Assembly: GCF_022701215.1 (NCBI RefSeq)
Contig: NZ_CP089976.1
Span: 1,200,001-1,232,000 of the forward strand
Length of the DNA: 32,000 bases
Reading direction: 5' to 3'
DNA from: Moraxella nasovis
GTDB lineage: Bacteria; Pseudomonadota; Gammaproteobacteria; Pseudomonadales; Moraxellaceae
Part shown: piece by piece, positions 9,539-23,893 of the stretch
How the letters are laid out: each line of letters begins with the position of its first letter
How positions within the stretch are numbered: the stretch's first letter is position 1
Position numbers and translations under genes: made by a program
Notes under the pieces: model-generated
What the model was told of the DNA's origin: nothing
What the model saw: the letters and a program-made list of their open reading frames with translations, nothing else
Databases searched by the model: none

Positions 9539-10933
9539 TCAAACATTAATATCAAAAATCTTGCCCCGATTGATGATGCCATTGGGATCAAATACTGCCT
9601 TGATGGCTTTCATATAGTCAATCTCAGCCTGTGAGCGAGTATAATCCAAATACGGCTTTTTGGTCATGCCCACACCATGTTCTGCCGAGATAGAGCCTTG
9701 GTATTTTTGTACCGTTGCAAAGACGTATTGGTTCACCGTTTGGCATTTGCCAAAAAATTCGTCCTTATCCATGCCATCAGGTTTTAGGATATTTAAATGC
9801 AAATTGCCATCGCCGATATGCCCAAACCAACAAATCTCAAAGTCAGGATAATTGTCTTTGACGATGGTTTCAATATCATCAATAAAATCGCCCAAATGCG
9901 TGATGAGTACAGACACATCGTTCTTGTAGGGGGTGAATACCGAGATGGTCTCAGAGATACTTTCTCGTAATTTCCACAGTTCGGTGAGCTGTCCTACGCT
10001 TTGGCTCATCACGCCATCTATGATAAACCCATCTTCTAAGGCCTCTTCAAAGACGTTCATGGCGGTATCTAGCACCGCATCGCTTGGTGCTTCAAATTCA
10101 AGCAAAACATAAAACGGCGTGCGACTGTCAAACGGTGCTTTGGCGTGTCCTGCCAGCAGTACTTTGTCAATCGCCACGCTGTCAAAAAACTCAAAAGCGG
10201 TGAGCGTGAGCGATTTGCCAAATCTATCAAGCAGTTTCACCACCGACCCAAAATCAGGCACGCCCAAGACCATTGCTGTCAGATTGACAGGCGGTTTTTC
10301 AAGTTTAATCAACGCACGAGTGATAAAGCCAAGCGTGCCTTCTGAGCCGATGAACAGATGACGAAAATCATAACCTGTGGCGTTTTTGAGCATACCGCCG
10401 TTTAATTGTAGAATATCGCCTTTGCCTGTAACCACCGTCAAGCCTAGAATTTGATTTCTTGTCATGCCATAGCGAATGACTTTGATACCGCCTGCATTGG
10501 TGGCGATGTTACCGCCGATTTGGCTTGACCCACTAGACGCAAAATCCACCGCATAATACAAGCCTTGATTGTCGGCAAATTCTTGTAGTGCCTTGGTTAC
10601 CACCCCAGCTTCCACTTCCACCATGCGGTCAGCTTCATAAAATTTGCCAATGGCGTTCATCTTGTCAAAACTTATCACCACTTCGCCACAACTTGCCACT
10701 GCCCCTGCTGACAGACCAGTACGTCCGCCACTTGGCACAAGACAAACTTTGTGGATATTGGCAAGGCGGACAATATCAGCGACTTGCTCGGTCGTCTTTG
10801 GAAAAACAATGGCAGATGGGGCAGGGGCAAAATGCTTTGTCCAGTCCTTGCCCCAATTGTCTAGGCTGTCTTGGTCGGTCTTGATTTGGCTGGGGTCTAG
10901 GGGGAGTTCGGTTAGGAATTGGCTTAGGTTCAT
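9539..10933 (-). CDS. FAD-linked oxidase, D-2-hydroxyglutarate dehydrogenase type
   Basis: 464 aa. ..NWGKDWTKHFAPAPSAIVFPKTTEQV..LVPSGGRTGLSAGAVA..GGNIATNAGGIKVIRYGMTRN..SAEHGVGMTKKPYL..FDPNGIINRGKIF is nearly colinear with Pseudomonas D2HGDH as I recall it. Confidence 0.85.
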   Translation of the reverse strand: MNLSQFLTELPLDPSQIKTDQDSLDNWGKDWTKHFAPAPSAIVFPKTTEQVADIVRLANIHKVCLVPSGGRTGLSAGAVASCGEVVISFDKMNAIGKFYEADRMVEVEAGVVTKALQEFADNQGLYYAVDFASSGSSQIGGNIATNAGGIKVIRYGMTRNQILGLTVVTGKGDILQLNGGMLKNATGYDFRHLFIGSEGTLGFITRALIKLEKPPVNLTAMVLGVPDFGSVVKLLDRFGKSLTLTAFEFFDSVAIDKVLLAGHAKAPFDSRTPFYVLLEFEAPSDAVLDTAMNVFEEALEDGFIIDGVMSQSVGQLTELWKLRESISETISVFTPYKNDVSVLITHLGDFIDDIETIVKDNYPDFEICWFGHIGDGNLHLNILKPDGMDKDEFFGKCQTVNQYVFATVQKYQGSISAEHGVGMTKKPYLDYTRSQAEIDYMKAIKAVFDPNGIINRGKIFDINV

Positions 10934-11018
10934 GGTGACTCTCTGAAAAATTTATTAAAAAAATAGTTATTAAATTTACATATTCATAACAAAAAATTTT
11001 TGGCAAATGGTAATCACT

Positions 11019-12326
11019 TTATGCCACAATCTTTAAAATCTGACCGCCATGATACAAGGTCAGCCCAAGCTCCGTGCCAATCTCACGCACCTTTTTAAAG
11101 GCGATTTGGCTGTCGTTGATGTCATAAAACGGCAAGGGCAACACGTCAGGATTATCCGTCTTGATAAACTTAGCAAACGCCTTGCCCATCATCGTGCCTG
11201 TGGTAATCCCACGCCCATTATAAGCAGTGGCGGCAAGTATGCCATCAGCAGGGGCAAACACTCGCATGATGTGGTCGGTGGTAAAGCCAAAATAACCAAA
11301 CCACTGACATTGCCAGTCAAACCTAGGCAAATCAGGATAATAATGAGCCACCACACCGTCCGCCCACTTTTGATAAAAGCCATCAGGCTTAAACGCACGA
11401 CCGCCCACCGTGCCAAGTATCAGCCTGCCATCATTGTCTCTACGAATGCTAGACAATGCCATGCAAGTGTCCCACGAGCCTTGTTTGCCAGCGAGTATCT
11501 GATTGGCGATGGCGTTGTCTAGTGGTTCGCTTGCAATTTGATAAAACTGTACATGATAAAAGCTCTTTTGAATATCAAGCCACTCGCCATCAGAATAGGC
11601 GTTGGTGGCGAGAATGACTTTTTTGGCTTTGACGCTGGCTTTTGCATCAGAACCATCGCACGCCACTTGCCAGCTGTCGCCATCTTTGGTAAGGCTATGG
11701 GCTTTGGTGTTTTCAAAAATTTTCACGCCCAAAATGATTGCACTTTTGGCAAGCCCATCCACATAAGCAAAGGGGTTGATTGTCCCTGCTCGCTTGTCTA
11801 GCAGGGCTTTGTTAATCTTGGTTGTGCCGGTCATCTCATGACATTTGCTACCTGTTAAGACTTCTACGTCCACCCCGCGCCTTTTAAACTGTGCCACACG
11901 GTTGTCAATGTCCGTCTCCATATTGGCGTTATGTGCCATGTGAATGTTGCCTGTGCGGGTATCTTGGGCGTTGATGTGATATTTGTCAATCATCTCAAAA
12001 ACCAAACGTGGGGCATCGCCTAAGATTTTGGTAAGTTTCTCGCCTGCCATCTCACCCAAGACAGCATTTAACTCATCAGGGGGCGACCATGTGCCAGCAT
12101 TGACATAGCCGACATTGCGACCTGAACCGCCCTTACCGATATAGTCGCTTTCTAGTACGCAGACCGAATAGCCAAATTCCGCCAAATGAATGGCAGCCGA
12201 CAGCCCTGTATAGCCCCCGCCCACCACGCAGACATCAGCGGTAATGTCGTCTGTTAGGGGCGGATAATGGACAGTTTTGGGGGCGGTGTCGTGCCAAAGG
12301 CAGTGTTCTTTTATCTGTTTTGTCAT
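11019..12326 (-). CDS. FAD-dependent (DAO-family) amine oxidoreductase; candidate L-pipecolate oxidase/dehydrogenase (AmaA-like)
   Basis: 435 aa with the dinucleotide fold VCVVGGGYTGLSAAIHLAEFG and an SGRNVG motif. AAGGA is upstream. The substrate is inferred from cluster context only. Confidence 0.75.
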   Translation of the reverse strand: MTKQIKEHCLWHDTAPKTVHYPPLTDDITADVCVVGGGYTGLSAAIHLAEFGYSVCVLESDYIGKGGSGRNVGYVNAGTWSPPDELNAVLGEMAGEKLTKILGDAPRLVFEMIDKYHINAQDTRTGNIHMAHNANMETDIDNRVAQFKRRGVDVEVLTGSKCHEMTGTTKINKALLDKRAGTINPFAYVDGLAKSAIILGVKIFENTKAHSLTKDGDSWQVACDGSDAKASVKAKKVILATNAYSDGEWLDIQKSFYHVQFYQIASEPLDNAIANQILAGKQGSWDTCMALSSIRRDNDGRLILGTVGGRAFKPDGFYQKWADGVVAHYYPDLPRFDWQCQWFGYFGFTTDHIMRVFAPADGILAATAYNGRGITTGTMMGKAFAKFIKTDNPDVLPLPFYDINDSQIAFKKVREIGTELGLTLYHGGQILKIVA

Positions 12327-12354
12327 GGTTTTCCTTAACTTACTCTATAATGAA

Positions 12355-13857
12355 TTAGGTCATATTACCAATGGCATCACTATCGGCATCTTTGGCGATG
12401 TTGGCTGGTGGTTCTTTGGGGATAAATTTGTTTAAAATCAGCCAAACCAGCCCAATCACAGGCGACAGCCAACACGCTATGGCGTAGGGTGCATAAGCCA
12501 AAGTCGCCACACCCAACGTCGCCGCCACAAAGCCACCCCCCATGTTCCAAGGGATTAACGGCGACAAAAGCGTGCCACAGTCTTCGATGGAGCGTGTCAA
12601 GGCGGTGCGTTTGTAGCCCATTTGGGCGTATTTGTCCTTTAACAGGCGGGCAGGCATGACAAGTGTGGTATAGACATCGCCCACCACCACGCCAATGCCA
12701 ATGGTGCTGGTATAAGTCGTACCAACCAAGCCAAAACGGCTGCGAACAAATTGGTTAATCTTTTGTAAAATGGCGTTCAATGTCCCATAAAACTCTAATG
12801 CCCCCACAAAGCTTAACGCAAGCAGAGTCAAAGTTACAACCCACGTCATGCTCATTACGCCACCTTTGGAGAGCAATTTATCCACAATCTCAACGCCAGT
12901 TGTGCTTACTACACCATTTTGTAGGACATTAAACAAATCTTTAATATCCACGCCTTGTACCCCGACAGCAACAAGACACGCCACAATAACACCGCCTAAC
13001 ACTGTCGGCAAGGCAGGAAATCTCATCATGGCAGCCCCAATGACCACAACCCCTGGTAGTAGTGTGATCAGGCTAATATGATAATTATCAGACAGTGTGC
13101 GACGCATCAGTTCAATGTCATGAAAGTCGGCTGTTTGGGCTGAGTACTGTATGCCCACATAAGCATATACCAGTATTGATATGATCATTGCAGGCACAGT
13201 GGTAGGAAGCATACCTTTGATATGTTCCCACAAGTCCACACCTGCTGCGGCTGGGGTGAGATTGGTGGTGTCGGATAAAGGCGACATCTTATCCCCAAAA
13301 AACGACCCAGAAATCACCGCACCTGCCGTCCATGGCTCTGGTATGCCAAGCCCATGCCCAATCCCCATCAAGGCAAGCCCTACCGTGCCGACCGTTCCCC
13401 ACGATGTCCCTGTGGCAAGCGACAAAACTGCACACAAGACGCACGTTGCCGCCAAAAAGGTACTTGGACTAAAAATCGCAAAACCATAATACAAAATAGT
13501 AGCTACCGTCCCTGCCTTGATCCAAGCGGCAATGAGCATGCCAATGGTGATGAGTAGGACGATGGCAGGCAAACCTACCTTGACGACTTTATACATATGA
13601 TTTTCCATACCAAGCCATTTGCGTTTGCGAAAACGCACAAACAGCCCAGTAATCACAATGCCGCATACCAATGGAATGTGGGGGGTAAAATCCTTAAAAA
13701 CAAAAAACTGCACCATCAAAATGGCAGTCGTCAAGATAAGCGGAGCAATATCCAAGAGAAAATTGCCCGATGGCTCAATGGGATTGGTTTTAAATGACCG
13801 CTTGGGGTCAGGGTGATTGGGTTCAAAGGTGTTGGTGGTCTCGGTAGCATTGTTCAT
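12355..13857 (-). CDS. NhaC-family secondary transporter
   Basis: About 500-aa polytopic ORF. The ATG at 13857 is preceded by AAGGA at 6-nt spacing, and the ORF-track start at 13878 is a TTG. The family call rests on overall length and hydrophobic pattern and on motifs such as ..SGSFFGDKMSPLSDTTN.. Confidence 0.75.
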   Translation of the reverse strand: MNNATETTNTFEPNHPDPKRSFKTNPIEPSGNFLLDIAPLILTTAILMVQFFVFKDFTPHIPLVCGIVITGLFVRFRKRKWLGMENHMYKVVKVGLPAIVLLITIGMLIAAWIKAGTVATILYYGFAIFSPSTFLAATCVLCAVLSLATGTSWGTVGTVGLALMGIGHGLGIPEPWTAGAVISGSFFGDKMSPLSDTTNLTPAAAGVDLWEHIKGMLPTTVPAMIISILVYAYVGIQYSAQTADFHDIELMRRTLSDNYHISLITLLPGVVVIGAAMMRFPALPTVLGGVIVACLVAVGVQGVDIKDLFNVLQNGVVSTTGVEIVDKLLSKGGVMSMTWVVTLTLLALSFVGALEFYGTLNAILQKINQFVRSRFGLVGTTYTSTIGIGVVVGDVYTTLVMPARLLKDKYAQMGYKRTALTRSIEDCGTLLSPLIPWNMGGGFVAATLGVATLAYAPYAIACWLSPVIGLVWLILNKFIPKEPPANIAKDADSDAIGNMT

Positions 13858-13900
13858 AAAAAGTCCTTTTTTATGCAAAATATTGATTTATTTAATTAAA

Positions 13901-13933
13901 ATAAGGCAAAGCAAAGAAATCGCCTTGCCTTAT
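13901..13933 (-). terminator. Hairpin after the ALDH gene (possible partial terminator or RNA processing site)
   Basis: ataaggcaa-N15-ttgccttat. On the minus strand it is followed by tttaattaaat. Confidence 0.35.
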
Positions 13934-13938
13934 ACACA

Positions 13939-15441
13939 TCAATCAAACACAATACCTTGGGCAAGGGGTAGCTCTGATGAATAATTGATGGTGTTGGTTT
14001 GTCGTCTCATGTAGTTTTTCCAAGCATCTGAGCCTGACTCACGACCACCGCCAGTTTCTTTTTCTCCGCCAAATGCACCACCGATTTCTGCACCTGACGT
14101 ACCGATATTGACATTGGCGATGCCACAGTCACTGCCTTGGGAAGATAAGAAATATTCGGCTTCTTTGACACTGTCTGTAAAGATGCACGATGACAACCCT
14201 TGTGGCACATCATTTTGCATTTCAATGGCACTGTCAAAATCATCATAACCCATCACATAAAGAATTGGAGCAAAGGTCTCGGTTTTGACAGCGTCTGTTT
14301 GGCTGTCCATTTCTACAATTGCAGGTTTGACATAATAAGCATTTGGATAAACATCTGTCAGCACTCGCTCACCGCCTGTTATCACGCCGCCTTGGGCTTT
14401 GGCATTGGTCAGGGCGGACTGCATATTATCAAAACTTGCCTTGTCAATCAAAGGTCCTACCAAATTGCCATCTAAAGGGTTGCCGATACGCACGCTGTCA
14501 TAGGATTTCTTGATACGAGCGACAACTTCTGCTTTGATGCTGTTGTGAACGATGAGACGGCGTAAGGTTGTGCAACGCTGACCTGCTGTGCCGACCGCAG
14601 CAAAGAGTATGCCACGCAAAGCAAGATTGATGTCGCTACTTGGGGCAAGTATCATGGCGTTATTGCCACCTAGCTCTAATAAGCATTTACCAAACCGCTC
14701 AGCAACTTTGGGGGCAACTTCACGCCCCATGCGTGTACTACCTGTGGCACTCACTAGGGCAACATCATGGCTGCTCACCAGCACATCACCCACATCACGT
14801 TCACCAAGGAGTAGTTCAGACAGACCGTCAGGGGCATCGCCAAAACGTTGAGCTGCTTTTTCAAATAGTGCTTGGCAGGCAAGGGCGGTGAGCGGTGTTT
14901 TTTCAGAAGGTTTCCAAATCACAGGATTGCCACATATCCATGCAAGGGCAGCATTCCATGACCACACCGCCACAGGAAAATTAAAGGCACTGATGACGCC
15001 TACCACACCCAAAGGATGCCATGTTTCTTTCATGTGATGGCTTGGGCGTTCGGATGCAATGGTCAGTCCATACAGCTGACGAGACAGCCCCACGGCAAAG
15101 TCGCAAATATCAATCATCTCTTGGACTTCGCCCAGTCCTTCGGCACGGATTTTGCCAGCTTCAAGGCTCACAAGCTCGCCCAAATCTTCTTTATGCTCAC
15201 GCAAAACTTCGCCCAATATCCGCACCAATTCGCCACGCTTGGGTGCAGGGACGGCTCGCCATGCTTTAAAGGCGGATTTGGCACGTTCAATTTTCGCTTT
15301 TGCGTCATCTTTATTGTGCAGGCTCACCTTGCCAATCACGCTACCGTCAATGGGGCTAGTTACGGCATAGTCGCCTTGATAATCCTTTTGACTTACGCCC
15401 ATTTTGGCAAGTAGCTCGTGGGTTCTGGTTTGAAAGTTCAT
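13939..15441 (-). CDS. amaB: ALDH7-type aldehyde dehydrogenase; piperideine-6-carboxylate / 2-aminoadipate-semialdehyde dehydrogenase (AmaB-like)
   Basis: 500 aa. ..GEVQEMIDICDFAVGLSRQLYG..VISAFNFPVAVWSWNAALA..LELGGNNA..GTAGQRCT.. matches the antiquitin/AmaB subfamily signature as I recall it. AGGAG is upstream. Confidence 0.8.
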   Translation of the reverse strand: MNFQTRTHELLAKMGVSQKDYQGDYAVTSPIDGSVIGKVSLHNKDDAKAKIERAKSAFKAWRAVPAPKRGELVRILGEVLREHKEDLGELVSLEAGKIRAEGLGEVQEMIDICDFAVGLSRQLYGLTIASERPSHHMKETWHPLGVVGVISAFNFPVAVWSWNAALAWICGNPVIWKPSEKTPLTALACQALFEKAAQRFGDAPDGLSELLLGERDVGDVLVSSHDVALVSATGSTRMGREVAPKVAERFGKCLLELGGNNAMILAPSSDINLALRGILFAAVGTAGQRCTTLRRLIVHNSIKAEVVARIKKSYDSVRIGNPLDGNLVGPLIDKASFDNMQSALTNAKAQGGVITGGERVLTDVYPNAYYVKPAIVEMDSQTDAVKTETFAPILYVMGYDDFDSAIEMQNDVPQGLSSCIFTDSVKEAEYFLSSQGSDCGIANVNIGTSGAEIGGAFGGEKETGGGRESGSDAWKNYMRRQTNTINYSSELPLAQGIVFD

Positions 15442-15517
15442 TGAATTACTCCTGTAAATTAGATTGGATTGATAGTTGTAAATTTACCAATATGACAACT
15501 TTACCGATTATCCTGTC

Positions 15518-15563
15518 AAATTGCAAAAGAATGAAATTGATGATGGCATTCCATTTGGGAATG
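15518..15563 (-). promoter_or_regulatory. 46-nt conserved operator (copy A) with LysR-type T-N11-A dyad CATTC-N7-GAATG, upstream of the ALDH gene
   Basis: aaattgcaaaagaatgaaattgatgatggcattccatttgggaatg is 42/46 identical to copy B. It lies 77-122 nt upstream of the ATG at 15441. Confidence 0.55.
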
Positions 15564-15574
15564 TTCTTTGCCCA

Positions 15575-16873
15575 TCAGCCCGCCATCTCACGCCCTGCAT
15601 ATTCACGAGCTGCCCATACCGCTATCAGGGAAATTACCCCCATAAAGATGATATAAGCAACAATCGGCATATACGAATTATCAAAGGTTTTGAGTAGCCA
15701 CAATGCCACCATCGGCGCTGTACCGCCAGCCAGTGCCGCCCCGATTTGATAGCCAAGCGTGATGCCTGTATAGCGGACGTTGCTTTTAAAAATCTCTGAA
15801 AACATTGTCCCAAGCACCGCCGTGATGGGCGTCCATACAATACCAAGCCCAATGATGGTGGCGATATTCAGCCAAAGCACCGAACCTGTATTTAGCATCC
15901 AAAAATACGGCAGGGCATATAGCATAAGCAGTACCACACCGCCAATATATACCGTTTTTCGTCCAATTTTATCAGACAATGCCCCCATCACAGGAATCAA
16001 AAAGGTGGTAATCAGCGTGGCGATCGTAACAGCATTTAATACTTGACTACGCTCAAAGGTCAAAACCTGCGTGGCATAATACATAATGAAGGTAAACATG
16101 ATATAAAATGGACCTGTCTCTACGCATTTTGCACCGATGGCAATCAGCACTTCTTTTTTGTGGGTGCGTAATGTCTCAAACAGCGGTACAGCAACGACTT
16201 TGCCTTCTTGTTGGTTTTTCTTAAAGGCAGGGGTTTCATCAATACCTTTTCGTATCCATAATCCCAAAAACACAAGCAACGCACTACCCACAAACGGCAC
16301 ACGCCAGCCCCACGACATAAAATCTTCTTCAGGTAGCATGGTCATTACCGTCAAGGCAAGCGTGGCAAGTAGCACACCTAAGGTTACGCCCATCTGTGGC
16401 ACCGCCCCAAACAGCCCCCGCTTATCTTTGGGGGCGTATTCTACTGCAAGGAGCATCGCTCCGCCCCATTCACCACCAATCCCAAGTCCCTGAATGAGCC
16501 TTAATAGCACCATTAAAATTGGTGCGGCAATACCAATGGCTTGATAGGTTGGCAATAGTCCCATTAGCACCGTCGCTCCACCCATCAAGGCAAGTGTCAA
16601 GACAAGCGTCTTTTTGCGACCGATTTTATCGCCAATATGACTAAAAAATATCCCGCCAAAAGGTCTGATAAAAAACGACAGCCCAAAGGACATAAAGGCA
16701 AGCATGGTGCCGACGGTAGGGTCTTCGGCTGGAAAGTACAGCTGATTAAAAATCAGTGCCGCCACCGTGCCATACAAAAAATAATCAAACCACTCAATAG
16801 AGCTACCAATCAGACTTGCCAAAAGCACCCGAGTGGAGACTTTTTTGTCTTCTATTACATGAGTATTTTCCAT
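15575..16873 (-). CDS. MFS transporter, metabolite:H+ symporter (ProP/KgtP/ShiA-like) subfamily
   Basis: 432 aa with 12 predicted TM segments. ..SSIEWFDYFLYGTVAALIFNQLYF.. and ..GDKIGRKKTL.. motifs are typical of the MHS subfamily. GGGAG is upstream. Confidence 0.85.
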   Translation of the reverse strand: MENTHVIEDKKVSTRVLLASLIGSSIEWFDYFLYGTVAALIFNQLYFPAEDPTVGTMLAFMSFGLSFFIRPFGGIFFSHIGDKIGRKKTLVLTLALMGGATVLMGLLPTYQAIGIAAPILMVLLRLIQGLGIGGEWGGAMLLAVEYAPKDKRGLFGAVPQMGVTLGVLLATLALTVMTMLPEEDFMSWGWRVPFVGSALLVFLGLWIRKGIDETPAFKKNQQEGKVVAVPLFETLRTHKKEVLIAIGAKCVETGPFYIMFTFIMYYATQVLTFERSQVLNAVTIATLITTFLIPVMGALSDKIGRKTVYIGGVVLLMLYALPYFWMLNTGSVLWLNIATIIGLGIVWTPITAVLGTMFSEIFKSNVRYTGITLGYQIGAALAGGTAPMVALWLLKTFDNSYMPIVAYIIFMGVISLIAVWAAREYAGREMAG

Positions 16874-16982
16874 AACTACTCCCTATCCGTGAATGTGTGT
16901 GAAGTAAAAACCCATCTGTCCCAATCAACTTCCCAACTTGTCATCAGGTCAAACCTACCATCAATGTAGAATTTTTCTAATA

Positions 16983-17029
16983 AAATTGCAAAAGAATCAA
17001 AATTATGATGGCATTCCATTTAGGAATGG
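16983..17029 (-). promoter_or_regulatory. 46-nt conserved operator (copy B) upstream of the MFS gene
   Basis: aaattgcaaaagaatcaaaattatgatggcattccatttaggaatgg carries the same CATTC-N7-GAATG dyad. It lies 110-156 nt upstream of the ATG at 16873. Confidence 0.55.
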
Positions 17030-17096
17030 AGAAGAAAACTTAAAATATGGTCAATTAAAATTAGAATGATACAGTATTATTTGCACATGAATGAAC

Positions 17097-17161
17097 GTAG
17101 GGGCGTATTGCATACGTCCAATAAGCTGCGGCTTGCAAAGACCTATGCAGCACGCCCCTAC
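17097..17161. repeat. REP/MITE-like extragenic palindromic element
   Basis: Terminal inverted repeats gtaggggcgt / acgcccctac extend to imperfect arms of about 22 nt (gtaggggcgtattgcatacgtc vs gacctatgcagcacgcccctac). A 14-nt solo match (aatacgcccctacg) occurs at 19863-19876. Confidence 0.5.
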
Positions 17162-17381
17162 AACTGTTTCATTTTTTATTTGGCAAGTAGTTCAAAAAGT
17201 ATACTACTTAGGTTTTCCATTCGCCCTGAGCTATGCCTGCGGGTAGGAAAACCGTTATAGGCAGACAAGCTCACCACGAACGGTTTTCTTATCATCATAC
17301 TTTTCAAACCACAGTCTTTTATTTTAATTCACCATAGTTGTTGGAGTATGTCAGTATTTAAAATGTTTATTTTTTCAATAT

Positions 17382-17408
17382 AAAAACACCCCAATCTAGG
17401 GTGTTTTT
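17382..17408 (-). terminator. Bidirectional rho-independent terminator after the OCD-family gene
   Basis: aaaaacaccc-caatcta-gggtgttttt, with A/T runs on both sides. Confidence 0.7.
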
Positions 17409-17427
17409 ATGTAGCAAGTGACTACAT

Positions 17428-18369
17428 TTATTGATTTAATGTGTTATACGCCAAATTCGCCGCCGCCAAATCTTCAAGCCCTGTGCCAACTGATTTAAAA
17501 ACAGTAATTTCATCATCGCTGACACGCCCTGTATGCTTGCCGTGACATAGGTCATATAGCGTGGCTTTAACCTTGTCTTTGGTAAATTGCCCTTCGTCAA
17601 TGGCAGACAAAACATCCCCTGCCTTTAACAGAGCTTCATCGGTATCTATAAAGACACTGGTATCATAAAAACACGCCCCATCAGTTTCACGCATGTGCGG
17701 GGTAAAGCTACCGATTAAATCTAGGTGCTGACCTGCCCTTAGCCACTCACGCAAAATCAGGGGCTGTGTGGAGAGCGTAGCACAGCTTATAATATCCGCC
17801 TGCTCTACTGCCCTTTGTAAATCACTGACAATGTGCGTTTTAAAGCCGTCTTGGGCGAGCTTGTCCGCCAATTTTTGGGCGTTGGTGGGCGTGGGATTAT
17901 AGATACTCACGGTGTCAATAGGGCGTACCGCACGGTACATCTCAGGGATAAGATTACCCACCTGCCCTGCTCCTACCACCAAAAGATGATGGCTATCGGC
18001 ACGGCTCAAATACCGCCCTGCCAAGGCAGATGCTGCTACTGTCCTTCTTGATGTGATGACATTACCATCAAACATCGCCATCGGCACGCCTGTCGTGGCA
18101 TCATACAGAATATAGACCGAGTGTAGCCCTGCTAGCCCCTTTTGGTTGTTATTAGGGAAAATAGAGACTGTTTTTAGCCCTAGGCGTTTGCCCACTTGCC
18201 ACGCTGGCATCAGCAAAAATCTGCCAATCTCATCGCCTGCCTCATTAGCAATAGGGTGCTGATGACGAAGTGGCACTTCTACCCCCTCAACAAAAAACTT
18301 ATGAATGCTGTCAATGAGCCTATCAGCTGGCAGGGCGGTGATAGTGTCGTGGGTGTCGTAGTGTTTCAT
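17428..18369 (-). CDS. Ornithine cyclodeaminase / mu-crystallin family enzyme (candidate lysine cyclodeaminase or piperideine-2-carboxylate reductase)
   Basis: 313 aa with the Rossmann motif LLVVGAGQVG and family-typical length. AAGGAG is upstream. The specific reaction is inferred from context. Confidence 0.8.
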   Translation of the reverse strand: MKHYDTHDTITALPADRLIDSIHKFFVEGVEVPLRHQHPIANEAGDEIGRFLLMPAWQVGKRLGLKTVSIFPNNNQKGLAGLHSVYILYDATTGVPMAMFDGNVITSRRTVAASALAGRYLSRADSHHLLVVGAGQVGNLIPEMYRAVRPIDTVSIYNPTPTNAQKLADKLAQDGFKTHIVSDLQRAVEQADIISCATLSTQPLILREWLRAGQHLDLIGSFTPHMRETDGACFYDTSVFIDTDEALLKAGDVLSAIDEGQFTKDKVKATLYDLCHGKHTGRVSDDEITVFKSVGTGLEDLAAANLAYNTLNQ

Positions 18370-18415
18370 AAAAGCTCCTTAAATTAAGAATTATCCTTAT
18401 TTTGCCAAATGAATG

Positions 18416-19831
18416 TCATGAGTTCAAGCCAAGCTCTATCAAGGCATCATCTAGCGACTTATCCATCATCGCTTGATATAGCACACATTCATCCAGGACA
18501 GTCGCCCCCAAAGCATCTTCAAACACCGCTTGGCTAGATTGTCTTTCATAACCTGACTTAGTCTTATCTTGGGCATTGTCGCCCAAATTAGACTGAAAAA
18601 TCCCTGCTGCCGACACAGGTAAAAAGTCTTCATAGACAATCGGTTCAAGTCGCAAAATACCTTGTTTGACCAGCTCTTTTGGGTCATTGCTTGTGGCTGA
18701 TTTTGATTTATCATTTATTTGGCTTTCGTTAATTTGATAATAAAAGTAGCCCAAGCTCTGCTCATAAATTTCTTGATAATCATCAGGAAACGCCCGAAAG
18801 CTGTCCGCCAACGCCTGATAATAAGCGTCAGGGTCTTTTTCTGGGGTGGTGGCAAGATTGGCTCTTGTCTTGTTTAGCAGCTCGTCATAGAGCTTACGCC
18901 CTTTGGGGGTTAGGGCAATGCCACGCTGTTCAATCTCGCCAAAACGGGCAGTGTGATTGCCTTGTGTGAGCGTGCCATCAGCATTTGTAAAGGCAATCGG
19001 CTCATTTAACGCCTTAAAGCTCGTCTGACGAAGTAGTATCGGACAGCTACGACGTGGCGGACCTTCGATGATTTCTTTGGGATCAATGCCACGCTCACTC
19101 ATGCCTGTTTGCACCTTGTCAATATCCAGCGTGCGTGGGGTTAGGTGGTTGATGTGTGGTCCATAAAAGCCGACAATATCGGCCATCAAGCGGTGCTGAT
19201 TGTGCAGTTTATCATACAGCTCTTTGCTGATGGGCGATGTGGTGTGCCATTTAAAGGTCTTGGTGGCTTCTATCACAAATTCATCGCTGTCTGCCTTGTT
19301 AAGTCCGCCTTGGCTTTCAGACTTTTGGATAAGCTCAATGACCCTTGGCGTAAAAATTTGGCGTTTGTTTAGGGTGTCTATCGCTTGCTGTCGTAGCTTG
19401 TCATCATCAATGAGTTCAAGACGCAAGAGTGAGCAAAACACCCGAAACGGACTTTTTTGCAGGCCATCACTATCGGTTGTCCGAAACGCCGTAGAATGCA
19501 CAGGCACGCCAGCAGGGGTTAGGTCATAGTAGCCCACAGGACTCATGCCCATGACAGAAAATAGCCGTCTCATCATATTAAGCTCGCTTGGTAGCCCCAA
19601 GCGTATCGCTCCGTGGCGTTCTAGGTCAATACGGTCAAGCTCGCCTGTGTTGGCTAGGTGCTGTTTTAGGGTAGGGTCTTTGTCAAGGGCAGACTTGTTC
19701 ACGTCCGCCACCAAGTCCATCAACTCCTTATAAAGTGGCACTTCGCTCTGATACATCTTGGACATGGCAAGCGAAAAGGCGTGGCGAATGCTGTCTTTGT
19801 CTTGAAATTGGCTTTGGGTAAATTGGCTCAT
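18416..19831 (-). CDS. hglS: DUF1338 / YdcJ-HglS family 2-oxoadipate dioxygenase/decarboxylase (2-oxoadipate -> D-2-hydroxyglutarate)
   Basis: 471 aa. ..MYQSEVPLYKELMDLVADVN..ERHGAIRLG..GVPVHSTAFR..PFRVFCSLLRLELI..HINHLTPRTLDID..GPPRRSCPILLRQTSFKAL..HTARFGEIEQRGIALTPKGR..YEDFLPVSAAGIFQSNLG.. is colinear with E. coli YdcJ as I recall it. Confidence 0.9.
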   Translation of the reverse strand: MSQFTQSQFQDKDSIRHAFSLAMSKMYQSEVPLYKELMDLVADVNKSALDKDPTLKQHLANTGELDRIDLERHGAIRLGLPSELNMMRRLFSVMGMSPVGYYDLTPAGVPVHSTAFRTTDSDGLQKSPFRVFCSLLRLELIDDDKLRQQAIDTLNKRQIFTPRVIELIQKSESQGGLNKADSDEFVIEATKTFKWHTTSPISKELYDKLHNQHRLMADIVGFYGPHINHLTPRTLDIDKVQTGMSERGIDPKEIIEGPPRRSCPILLRQTSFKALNEPIAFTNADGTLTQGNHTARFGEIEQRGIALTPKGRKLYDELLNKTRANLATTPEKDPDAYYQALADSFRAFPDDYQEIYEQSLGYFYYQINESQINDKSKSATSNDPKELVKQGILRLEPIVYEDFLPVSAAGIFQSNLGDNAQDKTKSGYERQSSQAVFEDALGATVLDECVLYQAMMDKSLDDALIELGLNS

Positions 19832-19910
19832 AATATTTCCTTACATTGGCTAACTGGGTGTAAATACGCCCCTACGGTGCGTTTAATGACAATTTTAAAC
19901 AACAATATCT

Positions 19911-21185
19911 TTAAGCAACAATATCATTTGGGTCATCGGGCAAACTTGCCAAGACTTCTTTTAAAATCGCTAAACCTTGATTTAACGTATCTTTATCAAT
20001 GTTAATGGGTGGCAATAAGCGGATAATGTGGCGGTATTTGCCGCTTGGCATGAGCAGTAAGCCCTTTTCACGGGCTACTTTTAAGATATAATTCATCACG
20101 TTGGCGTGCGTGCCGTGCTTGGCGTGCGATAAGCGAATGCCACGCATTGCCCCAATGCCTGTCAAGCCATCAAGCCAAGGCAATATTTGCTGTTTTTGCC
20201 ATAGGGCGATGGTGTCGGTCAAGGTGTTTTCGTAGTCTTTGGCGGCTTGCCATGTACCATCGTCCGCCATGATGTCTAGCACGGCAAGGGCGGCAGCACA
20301 CGCCACAGGGTTGCCTGAGTATGTCCCACCAAGGCTGCCCTTAATAAGTCCATTCACAAGGCTTGCTCGCCCAACGACCGCCCCCAAAGGCAATCCGCCA
20401 CCCATGCTTTTGGCAAAGAGTATCAAATCAGGTTCAATGTCTGTAAAACTGGTAGCAAACGGCACACCGCACCGCCCAAAACCTGACTGTATCTCATCAA
20501 ATATCAAGATAATGCCATGCTTATCACAAAATGCTCGCAAGTATTTGGCAAAGTCTTTATCCAACGCCAAAAATCCACCTTCGCCCTGTACAGGCTCTAT
20601 GATGACCGCCCCAATGCTACTTACGTCCACTTCTACGCTAATAAGGCGTTCTAGGGCAAGGATAGCGTCATCACAGCTTACGCCTGTATCAGTACTTGGG
20701 TAAGGGATATGATACACGCCAGCCGATAATGTGCCTAAGGCGGATTTGTAGGGGGCGACTTTGCCATTTAGATTCACCGCCGCAAGTGTTCTGCCGTGAA
20801 ATGCCCCATCAAAGGCGATGACCCCTGCTCGTCCTGTCTTTTGGCGGACGATTTTTAGGGCATTTTCACAGCTTTCTGCCCCAGAGTTGGTGAGCATACC
20901 CGCCACATCGCCTGTAATGGGGGTGATACTGCACAGGCGTGGCATATAGTCTTGATAGGGCTTGTGATGGACGGCATTATAAGCATAATGGGTCATTTTG
21001 TCGGTCTGCTCATGAATGGCGGAGACGATGGCAGGGTGGCAATGCCCAAAATTAAGCACGCCAATCCCCCCAACAAAATCAATATACTCCCTGCCATCGC
21101 TATCCCACACCCTTGCCCCTGCCCCACGTTCAAGCGTGATGGGGTGGACAACGGTAAATGCGTCTGTTACGTTGTGATTGCTCAT
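19911..21185 (-). CDS. Class III PLP aminotransferase (GabT/DavT-like; candidate 2-aminoadipate:2-oxoglutarate aminotransferase)
   Basis: 424 aa. ..DFVGGIGVLNFGHCHP..NSGAES.ENALK..DEIQSGFGR.G..FAKSMGGGLPLGA (PLP lysine)..TYSGNP. It starts 3 nt after the transporter stop. Confidence 0.85.
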   Translation of the reverse strand: MSNHNVTDAFTVVHPITLERGAGARVWDSDGREYIDFVGGIGVLNFGHCHPAIVSAIHEQTDKMTHYAYNAVHHKPYQDYMPRLCSITPITGDVAGMLTNSGAESCENALKIVRQKTGRAGVIAFDGAFHGRTLAAVNLNGKVAPYKSALGTLSAGVYHIPYPSTDTGVSCDDAILALERLISVEVDVSSIGAVIIEPVQGEGGFLALDKDFAKYLRAFCDKHGIILIFDEIQSGFGRCGVPFATSFTDIEPDLILFAKSMGGGLPLGAVVGRASLVNGLIKGSLGGTYSGNPVACAAALAVLDIMADDGTWQAAKDYENTLTDTIALWQKQQILPWLDGLTGIGAMRGIRLSHAKHGTHANVMNYILKVAREKGLLLMPSGKYRHIIRLLPPINIDKDTLNQGLAILKEVLASLPDDPNDIVA

Positions 21186-21188
21186 TTT

Positions 21189-22445
21189 TTATCCTTTATG
21201 AAGTTGATTTAACAATTTTTTCTCTTGCCATTTTTCGGTTTGGTCCACAATCTTGGCACTGACCAAATCGCCTGTGACATTGCCACAAGTAAAAATCATA
21301 TCCACCAGCACATTTATCCCTGCGGTTAAGGCTACAATTTCAATCGGCAGACCTGCCTGCGTAAAGACAATAGACATCGCAATCAGCCCTGTCCCTGGTA
21401 CGCCAGCAATCCCCACCGCTGTCACTGTCCCCACAATCACAATGCTGGCAAGCTCTGGCACAGACAGGCTCACGCCAACAATTTCAGCAGCAAAAATCAC
21501 CGCCACACCCAAACGCAATGCCGTGCCATTCATGTTCATTGTTGCTCCAATTGGCAAGGTCAGCCGTGCCACACGCTCGCTAATACCTGCCCTTTCGGCA
21601 GCCTTGATGCTAATTGGCAAGGTGCTAAGACTACTGCTGGTAACAAAGGATGTAAATATCGCTTCTTTGATGTCTTTATAAAACTTTACCACCTTAACCC
21701 CAAAAGACTTCATGATAAGCGGATACACCACCACCAAAAGGATAATTACGCCAGCATAAGACGTGCCGATAAATTTACCCAGTGACACAACCGTCTCCAA
21801 ACCCTGAGAACCAAAGGTATTGGCGGTAATCCCAAACACGCCAATGGGAGCATATTGCAAAATACCATTTAAAATTTTGGTAACGACTTCATTGCCCGCT
21901 TCCATGATTTTGTATAGAAGTTCGCCCATTTCCTGCTGTTTTAAATCGGCAGAATGTCGCATAATCAAAATGGCAAGCCCAACAATGACTGACACCGACA
22001 CCACCGCCAAAATATCGCCTGCCGCCAATGCACTAAAAATATTGCTTGGCACCATTCTAAGTATCGTATCTATAAATGACGGCTTGTCAGGTGGATTGAC
22101 ATTGGCATCTGTGGGCAAAGATAAGCCTTCGCCAGGGTTTGTCCATGTAGCCAGTGCGATTCCAACCACCACAGAGACAGCCGTGGTAATCATATAAAGC
22201 GGAAAGATTTTTAGACCGATACGCCCAAGGTCTTTGGGATTTGAGTGATTGACTGCCACAATGAGTGATAACGCCACCAAAGGAATGACAATCATCTTGA
22301 GTAAATTTAAAAACAATGTGCCAAGCGGTGTAAGTAGGCTACTGTGCTCCTTTAAAAGTAGCCCAGCCACAACCCCTAGTGCAAATCCTGCCGTCATTTT
22401 TAGCATAAATGACTTATTGGCATACCAACGCCATAATTTTTCCAT
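21189..22445 (-). CDS. Dicarboxylate/amino acid:cation symporter (DAACS family)
   Basis: About 418 aa from the ATG at 22445 (AAGGA 7 nt upstream; the ORF-track start at 22472 lacks an RBS). The DAACS pattern is typical, including ..LKMIVIPLV..SSSLSTLPI..PIGATMNMNGTA.. Confidence 0.85.
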   Translation of the reverse strand: MEKLWRWYANKSFMLKMTAGFALGVVAGLLLKEHSSLLTPLGTLFLNLLKMIVIPLVALSLIVAVNHSNPKDLGRIGLKIFPLYMITTAVSVVVGIALATWTNPGEGLSLPTDANVNPPDKPSFIDTILRMVPSNIFSALAAGDILAVVSVSVIVGLAILIMRHSADLKQQEMGELLYKIMEAGNEVVTKILNGILQYAPIGVFGITANTFGSQGLETVVSLGKFIGTSYAGVIILLVVVYPLIMKSFGVKVVKFYKDIKEAIFTSFVTSSSLSTLPISIKAAERAGISERVARLTLPIGATMNMNGTALRLGVAVIFAAEIVGVSLSVPELASIVIVGTVTAVGIAGVPGTGLIAMSIVFTQAGLPIEIVALTAGINVLVDMIFTCGNVTGDLVSAKIVDQTEKWQEKKLLNQLHKG

Positions 22446-22555
22446 AAATATTCCTTGAAACAGTCCTTGCAATTACCTATCGGTCTTGTTCAATTTTGAG
22501 ACCATGGCGTTATTTTTGACGTTTTTGGATAAATAAGCAAACGAAATTTTGAAGC

Positions 22556-22582
22556 ATAGCCATTCTAAAAAGGAATGGCTAT
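22556..22582 (-). promoter_or_regulatory. Perfect 10-7-10 palindrome ATAGCCATTC-N7-GAATGGCTAT (LysR-type T-N11-A box, copy C) between lysR and the transporter gene
   Basis: Read directly. It shares the CATTC-N7-GAATG core with copies A and B and lies 111-137 nt upstream of the ATG at 22445. Confidence 0.6.
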
Positions 22583-22631
22583 AAAAAGAGTGGCTAAAAG
22601 AGTAGTAAGAAAAACGTGAATTGGGTAAATT

Positions 22632-23531
22632 TTAAGGTGTGTTAAATTTGTCTAGATACCCGCTTATCCATTTGGTCATCGCCATCACTTTTGGGGTGTG
22701 AGCAAGGCGACTTTGGTAGGTCATGTAGTAGGCGTTTTGGCTTTGTAGTTTTTGATTGATTGCCAGCACAAGTGTGCCATCATTTAACTCTTTATCCACA
22801 AAACGCTTTGGCACAAGGGCAATGCCACAGCCAATCATGGCAGCATTGATACACGCAAAAAAGCTGTCAAATTTTGCCCCAATAAGCGTCTGGCACGCCA
22901 CGCCAAGCTCGGCAAAATACGCCTGCCACATGGTTGGGCGAGAGCGGATTTGCAAAAGGGGATAATGAGTAAGCTTATCTGAGTCTGTCTCCTTGGGCAG
23001 ATAATCAGGGCGACACACCGCCACCATATATTCATCAAAGAGCTTAACAGCGTCCATACCCACCCACACCCCATTACCAAACAAAAACGCCATGTCCACA
23101 CCGCCAGTATCTACAAGTGGCTCGGCAACCTCCTTGATGTCTAAATGGATAAGTGGGTGGCTTGCCCCAAAGCCTTTTAGGGCAGGAATGAGCCATTTGG
23201 CACAAAAGGTAGGGTGGCAGGCGATGGAGAGTATCTCGCCTTCTTGGTGTTTGACCATCATGGATAGGCTTGCGTGCTGAATTTGTGCCAAGATGGCAAG
23301 CGTGTCTTTATAATAACTTTGCCCAGCAGGCGACAGCTCAATACCTTGATTGACACGATAAAACAGCTGTACACCAAGCAATTCTTCTAATTGGGCAACC
23401 TGTTTGCTGACTGCACTTTGGGTCATGTGCAGCTCTTTACCTGCTTTGGTGAAACTAAGATGCCGTCCTGCCGCCTCAAAGCATTGCAAGGCGGTGGTTG
23501 ATGGGTATTTGCGAAAGTTGGTTGTATGCAT
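22632..23531 (-). CDS. LysR-family transcriptional regulator
   Basis: 299 aa. The N-terminal wHTH is ..ALQCFEAAGRHLSFTKAGKELHMTQSAVSKQVAQLEELLGVQLFYR.., followed by a periplasmic-binding-protein-like effector domain. Confidence 0.9.
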   Translation of the reverse strand: MHTTNFRKYPSTTALQCFEAAGRHLSFTKAGKELHMTQSAVSKQVAQLEELLGVQLFYRVNQGIELSPAGQSYYKDTLAILAQIQHASLSMMVKHQEGEILSIACHPTFCAKWLIPALKGFGASHPLIHLDIKEVAEPLVDTGGVDMAFLFGNGVWVGMDAVKLFDEYMVAVCRPDYLPKETDSDKLTHYPLLQIRSRPTMWQAYFAELGVACQTLIGAKFDSFFACINAAMIGCGIALVPKRFVDKELNDGTLVLAINQKLQSQNAYYMTYQSRLAHTPKVMAMTKWISGYLDKFNTP

Positions 23532-23620: not shown

Positions 23621-23696
23621 TGGCATCCCATAGGGGATTCGAACCCCTGTTACCGCCGTGAAAGGGCGGTGTCCTAGGCCTCTAGACGAATGGGAC
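23621..23696 (-). tRNA. tRNA-Glu (anticodon UUC)
   Basis: The reverse complement GTCCCATTCGTCTAGAGGCCTAGGACACCGCCCTTTCACGGCGGTAACAGGGGTTCGAATCCCCTATGGGATGCCA folds as a cloverleaf. The anticodon loop is CTTTCAC and CCA is encoded. Confidence 0.95.
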
Positions 23697-23817: not shown

Positions 23818-23893
23818 TGGTGGAGCTAAGCGGAGTCGAACCGCTGACCCCTTGCATGCCATGCAAGTGCTCTACCAACTGAGCTATAGCCCC
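23818..23893 (-). tRNA. tRNA-Ala (anticodon GGC)
   Basis: The reverse complement is GGGGCTATAGCTCAGTTGGTAGAGCACTTGCATGGCATGCAAGGGGTCAGCGGTTCGACTCCGCTTAGCTCCACCA. It has the G3:U70 identity pair, anticodon loop ATGGCAT and encoded CCA. Confidence 0.95.

Follow-up and report, generated by a model that had tools for sequence, protein, structure and literature searches.

Gene content and enzyme assignments

We analysed a 32-kb window (the whole stretch of DNA covered here) of the 2.03-Mb Moraxella nasovis chromosome, in which a ten-gene cluster carries candidates for the catabolism of L-pipecolate and L-2-aminoadipate through the 2-oxoadipate dioxygenase/decarboxylase HglS. In the open reading frame (ORF) listing of the window, ten minus-strand ORFs span exactly 9539-23531, and Pfam families were assigned to all ten products with E-values from 1e-21 to 1e-159; the ten co-directional genes, and the family that a preliminary description of this DNA had named for each, were thus borne out. 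Half of the proteins (five of the ten) exceed curated NCBIfam equivalog or exception cut-offs. The HglS and OCD-family proteins match NCBI records of M. nasovis at 100% identity. The cluster is flanked by tRNA-Ala/tRNA-Glu-gltX-rsmH on one side and by ydjM on the other. Its genes and predicted regulatory features, in the order of transcription, are as follows.

22632-23531, minus strand: LysR-type regulator (GcvA-like), presumed to activate the cluster; Pfam HTH_1 and LysR_substrate
22522-22581, minus strand: predicted operator/promoter element 5′ of the SDF gene; palindrome at 22561-22577, then TTCGTTTGC
21189-22472, minus strand: dicarboxylate/amino acid:cation symporter (DAACS) transporter of the SDF family; Pfam SDF, 1.9e-107
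19911-21185, minus strand: predicted 2-aminoadipate:2-oxoglutarate transaminase, class III (PP_4108 type); NCBIfam NF049976
18416-19831, minus strand: predicted HglS, 2-oxoadipate dioxygenase/decarboxylase; NF049974, and PF07063 at 2.9e-159
17428-18369, minus strand: predicted reductase of 1-piperideine-2-carboxylate (Pip2C) and 1-pyrroline-2-carboxylate (Pyr2C), of the ornithine cyclodeaminase (OCD)/mu-crystallin family; NF004793
17380-17410, minus strand: predicted intrinsic-terminator hairpin and U-run closing the SDF-transaminase-hglS-OCD unit; folding, then UUUUUAUAUU
16973-17032, minus strand: predicted operator/promoter element 5′ of the MFS gene; palindrome at 17012-17028
15575-16873, minus strand: major facilitator superfamily (MFS) transporter of the metabolite:H+ symporter (MHS) family; TIGR00883, below its cut-off
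15508-15567, minus strand: predicted operator/promoter element 5′ of the aldehyde dehydrogenase (ALDH) gene; palindrome at 15547-15563
13939-15441, minus strand: predicted AmaB, ALDH7-type dehydrogenase of piperideine-6-carboxylate (P6C)/2-aminoadipate semialdehyde; NF050084
13901-13933, minus strand: terminator- or attenuator-like 14-bp hairpin in the ALDH/NhaC gap; folding
12355-13878, minus strand: NhaC-family transporter, true start probably the ATG at 13857; TIGR00931
11019-12326, minus strand: predicted AmaA, FAD-dependent L-pipecolate oxidase (DAO family); NF050086 and Pfam DAO
9539-10933, minus strand: predicted short (GlcD-only) D-2-hydroxyglutarate dehydrogenase (D2HGDH), an FAD-linked oxidase; PDB matches and residues

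The candidate HglS scored 701 against NF049974 (cut-off 550) and shared 54% identity with the HglS of P. putida whose crystal structure is known (6w1g, E=3e-150). His70, His226, Glu294, Arg74, Val402 and Ser403 are the essential residues of HglS (Thompson et al. 2020). All six are kept in the window protein, with H73, R77, H229, E299, V406 and S407 corresponding to H70, R74, H226, E294, V402 and S403 of 6w1g, and accordingly the metal triad (His70/His226/Glu294), the substrate arginine (Arg74) and the Val402-Ser403 loop are all present. The product is thus predicted with confidence to be a 2-oxoadipate dioxygenase/decarboxylase, which turns 2-oxoadipate and O2 into D-2-hydroxyglutarate and CO2.

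We then consider the enzyme proposed to use this product. In the PDB search, the FAD-linked oxidase ranked human D2HGDH (2.8e-75) ahead of glycolate oxidase (1e-49) and D-lactate dehydrogenase (5e-43). Alignment to the human enzyme (6lpn) revealed that the zinc and substrate residues R386, H434, H441, E475 and H476 are kept, together with K401 and N443, the C5-carboxylate binders that are replaced in D-lactate dehydrogenase and GlcD. As the protein is closer to human D2HGDH than to these other oxidases and has this lysine and asparagine in place, the D2HGDH-type assignment of the preliminary description is upheld; it is a predicted short D2HGDH, like PP_5154 and the human enzyme, and not of the long YdiJ/PP_4493 type.

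The upstream enzymes were assigned mainly by curated models. The class-III transaminase reached 694.5 with NF049976 (cut-off 650), whereas models for γ-aminobutyrate (GABA) transaminases gave at most 397 against cut-offs of at least 507, the best one scoring 397 against 713; its closest solved structure is E. coli GabT. The candidate AmaB scored 827 with NF050084 (cut-off 730) and matched the semialdehyde dehydrogenase Pcd (6rtr, 5e-194) and human ALDH7A1 (9e-146). The candidate AmaA scored 642 with NF050086 (cut-off 600) and carries the DAO fold (PF01266, 4e-57). The earlier proposals of AmaA, AmaB, 2-aminoadipate transaminase and HglS candidates are therefore supported, all four lying above their NCBIfam cut-offs.

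The OCD-family protein had been proposed to make pipecolate from lysine. We found that it passes the model for bifunctional Pyr2C/Pip2C reductases (NF004793, 398 against a cut-off of 322), while the cyclodeaminase models fail (PRK08291, 153 against 408; PRK07589 OCD, 123 against 350). Its matches in PDB were Pyr2C reductase 6t3e (1e-43), the mu-crystallin CRYM (3e-34), lysine cyclodeaminase (LCD, 6e-20) and OCD (3e-18), so that LCD and OCD are the most distant among the solved relatives listed. Reductases of this superfamily are without the Glu and Asp that are required for cyclisation (Watanabe et al. 2014, PMC3958920). We aligned the pTi-SAKURA OCD with the window protein and four relatives, taking the numbering from an alignment of the pTi-SAKURA enzyme to P. 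putida OCD, in which Glu56 lies in IELMP and Asp228 in GGDCPGK. Leu replaces Glu56 and Phe replaces Asp228, both in the window protein and throughout its clade, while the carboxylate-binding Lys69 and Arg112 are kept (K66 and R109, invariant in the alignment). On the model scores, the ranking of solved structures and the Leu and Phe at the cyclisation positions, we reject the identity of a lysine cyclodeaminase, and with it the proposed production of pipecolate from lysine; the protein is a predicted ketimine reductase, forming L-pipecolate from Pip2C or L-proline from Pyr2C. This corrects a tempting mis-annotation, since "ornithine cyclodeaminase family" would here denote a ketimine reductase.

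A relative of this reductase also occurs in another setting. In Moraxella lacunata (L062, 8494-13766), where no hglS is nearby, an 80%-identical reductase sits between a Glu/Leu/Phe/Val-type dehydrogenase with a frameshift and a D2HGDH-like FAD oxidase, and two components of the cluster are thus combined in another way.

Transcription units and a shared predicted operator

The gaps inside the SDF-transaminase-hglS-OCD series are 3, 79 and 46 bp. The series is followed by the hairpin at 17380-17410 (ΔG -20.5 kcal/mol, z -5.05), and the spacer between the OCD and MFS genes is 554 bp long. The 14-bp hairpin between the ALDH and NhaC genes (ΔG -19.4, z -5.8) is followed by UUUUAAU. From this layout we predict at least three transcription units, namely SDF-transaminase-hglS-OCD, MFS, and ALDH with or without NhaC-AmaA-D2HGDH, each preceded by an element of about 45 bp.

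The core of this element is the palindrome CATTC-N7-GAATG, of which the window contains exactly three copies, whereas shuffled sequence would give 0.02. All three lie 5′ of cluster units, at 89 bp from the SDF ORF, 139 bp from the MFS ORF and 106 bp from the ALDH ORF. In its longer form, CATTCC-N5-GGAATG, it is a palindrome of the T-N11-A type, and a -35-like hexamer, TTGCAA, follows about 20 bp downstream. Promoters activated by LysR-type regulators usually have this layout. In about 20 related loci the palindrome precedes the ALDH match by 87-131 bp, and in locus L003 it also precedes the SDF gene; an alignment of 22 sites gave the consensus cCATTCC-aaaa-n-gGAATGaCagCAaGAAattt-n-TTatTTTGCAa. 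Moreover, a half-element, GGAATG-N15-ATTCGTTTGC, is kept in the spacers between the LysR and transaminase genes of relatives.

The distribution of the regulator was compared with that of the palindrome. The LysR protein has GcvA as its best NCBIfam match (250 bits against a cut-off of 288) and is thus without a named equivalog, and a LysR of 47-61% identity precedes transaminase-hglS in Moraxella, Psychrobacter and metagenome loci. The palindrome was missing from loci with a different, divergently oriented adjacent LysR (42-43% identity), and also from Pelistega, whose cluster has no LysR. We infer that the cluster LysR binds the predicted operator. The suggestion in the preliminary description that the genes form one regulon gains support from this predicted operator, which is shared by three promoters and conserved in about 20 loci. 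Given that the LysR gene stays with transaminase-hglS where pipecolate genes are lacking, its inducer is probably 2-aminoadipate, 2-oxoadipate or D-2-hydroxyglutarate, rather than lysine or pipecolate.

Two of the elements, those before the MFS gene (16973-17032) and the ALDH gene (15508-15567), share about 90% identity across 46 bp. The gap between the OCD and MFS genes of Moraxella sp. ATCC 23246 (L004) measures only 76 bp and holds no operator. The M. nasovis spacer looks like an insertion with a terminator and repeat hairpins, and the comparison suggests that a copy of the amaB promoter compensated for it, which would have restored MFS expression after the gene was split from the hglS-OCD operon.

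Two repeats were observed in spacers of this kind. Three copies of the 10-mer GTAGGGGCGT are present in the window, where 0.02 would be expected, and all of them lie in cluster spacers (17097-17161 and 19866-19875); two of the copies end a 65-nt hairpin in the OCD-MFS spacer (ΔG -40.5 kcal/mol, z -6.6), which looks like an intergenic repeat of the repetitive extragenic palindromic (REP) or miniature inverted-repeat transposable element (MITE) kind. In a Moraxella metagenome-assembled genome (MAG; L002, 8340-8548), the spacer between the LysR and transaminase genes carries a tandem octamer, (TTGAATGC)x7, that includes the GAATG half-site of the operator, and which could be a slippage-prone tract altering regulator binding or promoter spacing.

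Related loci, transporters and flanking genes

The gene order is kept in other genomes, and the cluster has therefore not come together by chance. All ten genes are present in Moraxella sp. ATCC 23246, where the SDF gene is inverted. At the same site (rsmH-gltX / ydjM), M. ovis (L008) carries LysR-transaminase-hglS-SDF-D2HGDH, without the OCD, MFS, ALDH, NhaC and AmaA genes. M. pluranimalium has LysR-transaminase-hglS-ALDH-D2HGDH. Psychrobacter sanguinis has LysR-transaminase-hglS followed by insertion sequences. The smallest loci, in two Moraxella MAGs (L005 and L006), consist of hglS-D2HGDH alone, and thus the D2HGDH gene adjoins hglS even there. Outside the family, the betaproteobacterium Pelistega europaea (L010) carries transaminase-hglS-SDF-ALDH-NhaC-DAO, then a 968-aa YdiJ-type dehydrogenase.

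A metagenome scan with the NhaC protein yielded 51 loci, with ALDH-NhaC-AmaA present in most at 56% identity or above. Twelve metagenome loci carry LysR-transaminase-hglS-ALDH-NhaC-AmaA, plus D2HGDH where the contig runs on, and in about ten a divergent LysR precedes ALDH-NhaC-AmaA and hglS is inverted. The consolidated cluster is therefore common, since Moraxella, Pelistega and numerous metagenome contigs carry this arrangement. Against this common cluster, the additions in M. nasovis are the SDF gene and the OCD-MFS pair; the adjacency of hglS and the OCD gene is also found in L003 and in Moraxella sp. ATCC 23246. Taken together, these comparisons show that the cluster is modular and conserved.

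The same comparisons bear on the three transporters. The DAACS protein scored about 190 bits with the DctA and GltP models, far under their cut-offs, and its gene accompanies transaminase-hglS in M. ovis, L003, Moraxella sp. ATCC 23246 and Pelistega. It would import 2-aminoadipate or another C6/C5 dicarboxylate, and its presence with transaminase-hglS even where pipecolate genes are lacking (M. ovis) fits 2-aminoadipate uptake.

The NhaC-family protein passes TIGR00931 (437 against a cut-off of 370). Its gene is flanked by amaB and amaA in the metagenome loci of at least 56% identity and also in Pelistega, which has no reductase. A sister NhaC clade (52-54% identity) adjoins the heterotetrameric sarcosine oxidase genes soxBDAG, lying directly upstream of them (L035, 5950-12605, where soxB, soxA and soxG were identified; L028-L038; L044-L050). 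Because both kinds of neighbour oxidise secondary amines, pipecolate, or another imino or N-alkyl amino acid, is a better guess for the substrate than lysine, and the protein is a putative L-pipecolate importer. The sox-linked clade itself suggests a carrier of sarcosine or N-methyl amino acids in a family annotated as Na+/H+ antiporters. A lysine transporter controlled by a riboswitch, like LysW, was also considered and rejected, as no lysine riboswitch was found in the window, where two tRNAs were the sole Rfam matches at the gathering threshold.

The MHS transporter fell below TIGR00883 (425 against a cut-off of 443), and its gene adjoins the OCD gene in Moraxella sp. ATCC 23246 too. Its substrate may be Pip2C or D-lysine, or else an imino acid. 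The MFS protein of M. nasovis shares 90% identity with its counterpart in Moraxella sp. ATCC 23246 (12481-13752), while neighbouring cluster proteins are 54-80% identical; this excess could reflect unusually strong constraint or a recent gene exchange.

We also looked for the first step from lysine. In P. putida, racemisation is followed by AmaD or AmaC, which turn D-lysine into Pip2C. The genes around the cluster encode an amino-acid ABC transporter, homoserine kinase, a GATase_4 protein, a DUF3025 protein, a Slam with its lipoprotein, YdjM, GltX and RsmH. No candidate for a lysine racemase, D-amino-acid dehydrogenase, D-lysine aminotransferase or L-lysine oxidase was found in the 32-kb window as scanned up to rsmH; the three ORFs beyond it are ftsL, ftsI and murE by synteny with M. 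ovis. A proline-catabolic gene was likewise absent from the window. Therefore, the encoded route starts at Pip2C/L-pipecolate and, separately, at 2-aminoadipate; the conversion of lysine to Pip2C, if it occurs, must rely on a gene outside the cluster, and the cluster alone does not account for growth on lysine.

Two neighbourhoods beside the cluster carry features of their own. A Slam translocon (SlipAM and TPR_Slam domains) is encoded at 7291-8709 on the plus strand, within a feature at 4863-8709, and is preceded by a 785-aa Slam-dependent surface lipoprotein with two factor-H-binding-protein C-terminal domains. The N-terminus of the lipoprotein consists of Lys/Glu/Ala-rich repeats, and the AT skew is 0.35 at 5001-6000. 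A CopD-like gene occupies the equivalent site in M. ovis, and thus the Slam pair looks like a strain- or species-specific insertion beside the cluster. On the other side, tRNA-Glu(UUC) and tRNA-Ala(GGC), at 23621-23696 and 23818-23893 on the minus strand, sit between gltX and the LysR gene, with a perfect consensus sigma-70 promoter (TTGACA-17-TATAAT) at 23939-23911 upstream of both.

Proposed route, alternatives and comparison with known systems

We consider it likely that the cluster is a LysR-controlled regulon which takes L-pipecolate, Pip2C and L-2-aminoadipate to 2-oxoglutarate by the "D-lysine/pipecolate" route of P. putida. In this route, the OCD-family enzyme would reduce Pip2C to L-pipecolate with NAD(P)H, AmaA would oxidise L-pipecolate to P6C, and AmaB would convert P6C (2-aminoadipate semialdehyde) to L-2-aminoadipate. 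The class-III transaminase would then transfer the amino group of 2-aminoadipate to 2-oxoglutarate, yielding 2-oxoadipate and glutamate; HglS would form D-2-hydroxyglutarate from 2-oxoadipate with O2, releasing CO2, and the short D2HGDH would oxidise it to 2-oxoglutarate. This stoichiometry and flow follow the established reactions of the P. putida enzymes. Since the transaminase uses up 2-oxoglutarate and the last step restores it, the net carbon product would be glutamate.

The preliminary description had gone further and placed every step of a six-enzyme route from lysine to the TCA cycle in one regulon. The part from Pip2C to 2-oxoglutarate is supported, with a candidate gene for each step and a shared predicted operator, while the lysine step falls away, given that the window holds no enzyme that would make Pip2C from D- or L-lysine. 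This missing enzyme also counts against the proposed route, and several other observations do the same. The transaminase is only 44 bits over its cut-off, and GABA transaminases are its closest solved relatives. AmaA is without a solved relative at E<=1e-10 in the PDB search. The D2HGDH carries T390S and Y432F, at less strictly conserved positions, and has no NCBIfam match for the short type, with GlcD at 291 against 568 and YdiJ at 119 against 1350. The transcription of NhaC-AmaA-D2HGDH is ambiguous, because a strong hairpin separates the ALDH and NhaC genes. Finally, the substrate preferred by the reductase could be Pyr2C and not Pip2C, because relatives of the enzyme adjoin putA/putP or DAO genes.

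This last point leads to an alternative in which OCD and MFS would serve the use of D-proline or 3-hydroxyproline, as a module of their own that turns Pyr2C into L-proline, and the lysine-derived pathway would start at imported L-pipecolate. A 61%-identical homologue of the reductase in Neisseria lisongii sits between putA and a putP-like sodium:solute symporter (SSF) gene, and one in a P. putida strain pairs with a DAO enzyme and an amino-acid transporter. Characterised LhpI enzymes use both Pyr2C and Pip2C, or Pyr2C alone (PMC3958920). Furthermore, ProP is among the MHS transporters, and the Pelistega cluster and most metagenome clusters are without OCD or MFS genes. However, the hglS-OCD adjacency recurs in two other loci and the window has no gene for proline catabolism. 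The OCD gene ends the SDF-transaminase-hglS operon and the MFS gene has its own copy of the operator, and the two are thus predicted to be co-regulated with the lysine-derived pathway. We therefore regard a separate proline module as unlikely.

We also weighed whether the OCD-family enzyme could be a lysine cyclodeaminase like RapL/PipA, forming L-pipecolate directly from L-lysine and making the cluster a self-contained route from L-lysine to 2-oxoglutarate. Membership of the OCD/mu-crystallin superfamily, predicted co-transcription with hglS (a 46-bp gap and no terminator) and the fact that other bacteria have LysW, a predicted lysine transporter of the NhaC family, would fit this. In contrast, it is the reductase model that passes, the cyclodeaminases are the farthest solved relatives and the two cyclisation residues are replaced, as described above; the NhaC gene has no lysine riboswitch, and its clade associates with imino-acid oxidases. 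Such a route appears highly improbable. That the cluster mainly clears endogenous D-2-hydroxyglutarate or 2-oxoadipate, as a detoxification or housekeeping function, is hardly credible, for although hglS-D2HGDH pairs stand alone in some Moraxella MAGs and D2HGDH has housekeeping roles in other bacteria, the three dedicated transporters, the inducible-type LysR operator and the full upstream catabolic set point to external substrates.

The locus would provide, for the HglS branch of lysine-derived catabolism, a compact co-regulated module in which a regulator and a defined operator come together with transporters and five or six enzymes, and which could be moved to other hosts or serve to build a biosensor. 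Beyond this, we put forward tentatively, as a proposal that may well not hold in full, that the cluster and its relatives represent an undescribed LysR regulon with an operator of about 45 bp (CATTCC-N5-GGAATG ... TTTTGCAA), together with new transporter substrates: L-pipecolate (imino acid) for the NhaC clade, 2-aminoadipate for the DAACS clade, and Pip2C/D-lysine for the MHS transporter. On this tentative reading, airway commensals like Moraxella and Pelistega could live on pipecolate and 2-aminoadipate from the host. The assignments would be substrate predictions for three poorly characterised transporter clades. A search of the available literature found no description of this consolidated cluster or its operator. 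The gain is incremental, because the chemistry had been established in P. putida and NCBI models can already name the genes; what is new here, the conserved operator and the transporter associations, is modest in both cases.

The closest known system is the D-lysine/L-pipecolate pathway of P. putida KT2440 (AmaD/AmaC, DpkA, AmaA, AmaB, PP_4108, HglS and YdiJ PP_4493), with which the cluster shares the predicted chemistry from Pip2C to 2-oxoglutarate and homologous AmaA, AmaB, transaminase and HglS. The Pip2C reductase differs, belonging to the OCD/mu-crystallin family here and to the malate/L-lactate dehydrogenase-2 family (DpkA) in P. putida, as does the D-2-hydroxyglutarate dehydrogenase, which is the short GlcD-only type here and the YdiJ of about 1000 aa there. 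Unlike in P. putida, the transaminase and D2HGDH genes of M. nasovis lie inside the cluster and three transporter genes are embedded in it, whereas no AmaC, AmaD or lysine racemase gene lies near it in the window. In P. putida, lysine and 2-aminoadipate co-induce AmaA, AmaB, PP_4108, HglS and YdiJ. The preliminary description had called the P. putida genes scattered, which overstates the case, since amaA (PP_5257), amaB (PP_5258) and hglS (PP_5260) are already neighbours there. It had also presented the cluster as a compact natural module; the co-regulated gene set agrees with a compact module, but the point was overstated, since the same cluster is common and such neighbourhoods were reported in 2019. 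In that work, hglS neighbourhoods hold glycolate-dehydrogenase-like, ALDH, sarcosine-oxidase-like and transaminase genes (Thompson et al. 2019, mBio), while the later study (Thompson et al. 2020, Nat Commun) has no discussion of genomic context.

For regulation, the nearest parallel is HgcR, a LysR-type sensor of D-2-hydroxyglutarate that activates the D2HGDH gene PP_4493 in P. putida (PMC12297413). In both cases, a presumed or known LysR-family activator is tied to the end of the same pathway; unlike HgcR, the regulator here lies upstream of transaminase-hglS, and its presumed operator is found at the transporter and amaB genes, not at D2HGDH. For transport, LysW is an NhaC-family predicted lysine transporter under a lysine riboswitch (PMC5584792). 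Like LysW, the NhaC-superfamily transporter of the cluster is genetically linked to lysine metabolism, but it differs in the lack of a riboswitch in the window, in its catabolic context between amaB and amaA, and in a sister clade that stands beside sarcosine oxidase.

For the reductase, Azospirillum brasilense LhpI (PMC3958920) belongs to the same superfamily and, like the window protein, is without the cyclisation Glu and Asp. Unlike LhpI, the window protein falls in the PRK06141/NF004793 clade, and the LhpI model NF045512 matches it weakly (109 against 400). The mammalian pathway (CRYM, PIPOX, ALDH7A1 and AADAT) has the same reaction order from Pip2C to 2-oxoadipate, and the window reductase and dehydrogenase are homologous to CRYM (3e-34) and ALDH7A1 (9e-146), respectively. 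Past 2-oxoadipate the routes would part, mammals proceeding to glutaryl-CoA via the 2-oxoadipate dehydrogenase complex, whereas the cluster is predicted to lead to D-2-hydroxyglutarate via HglS, as in plants and Pseudomonas.

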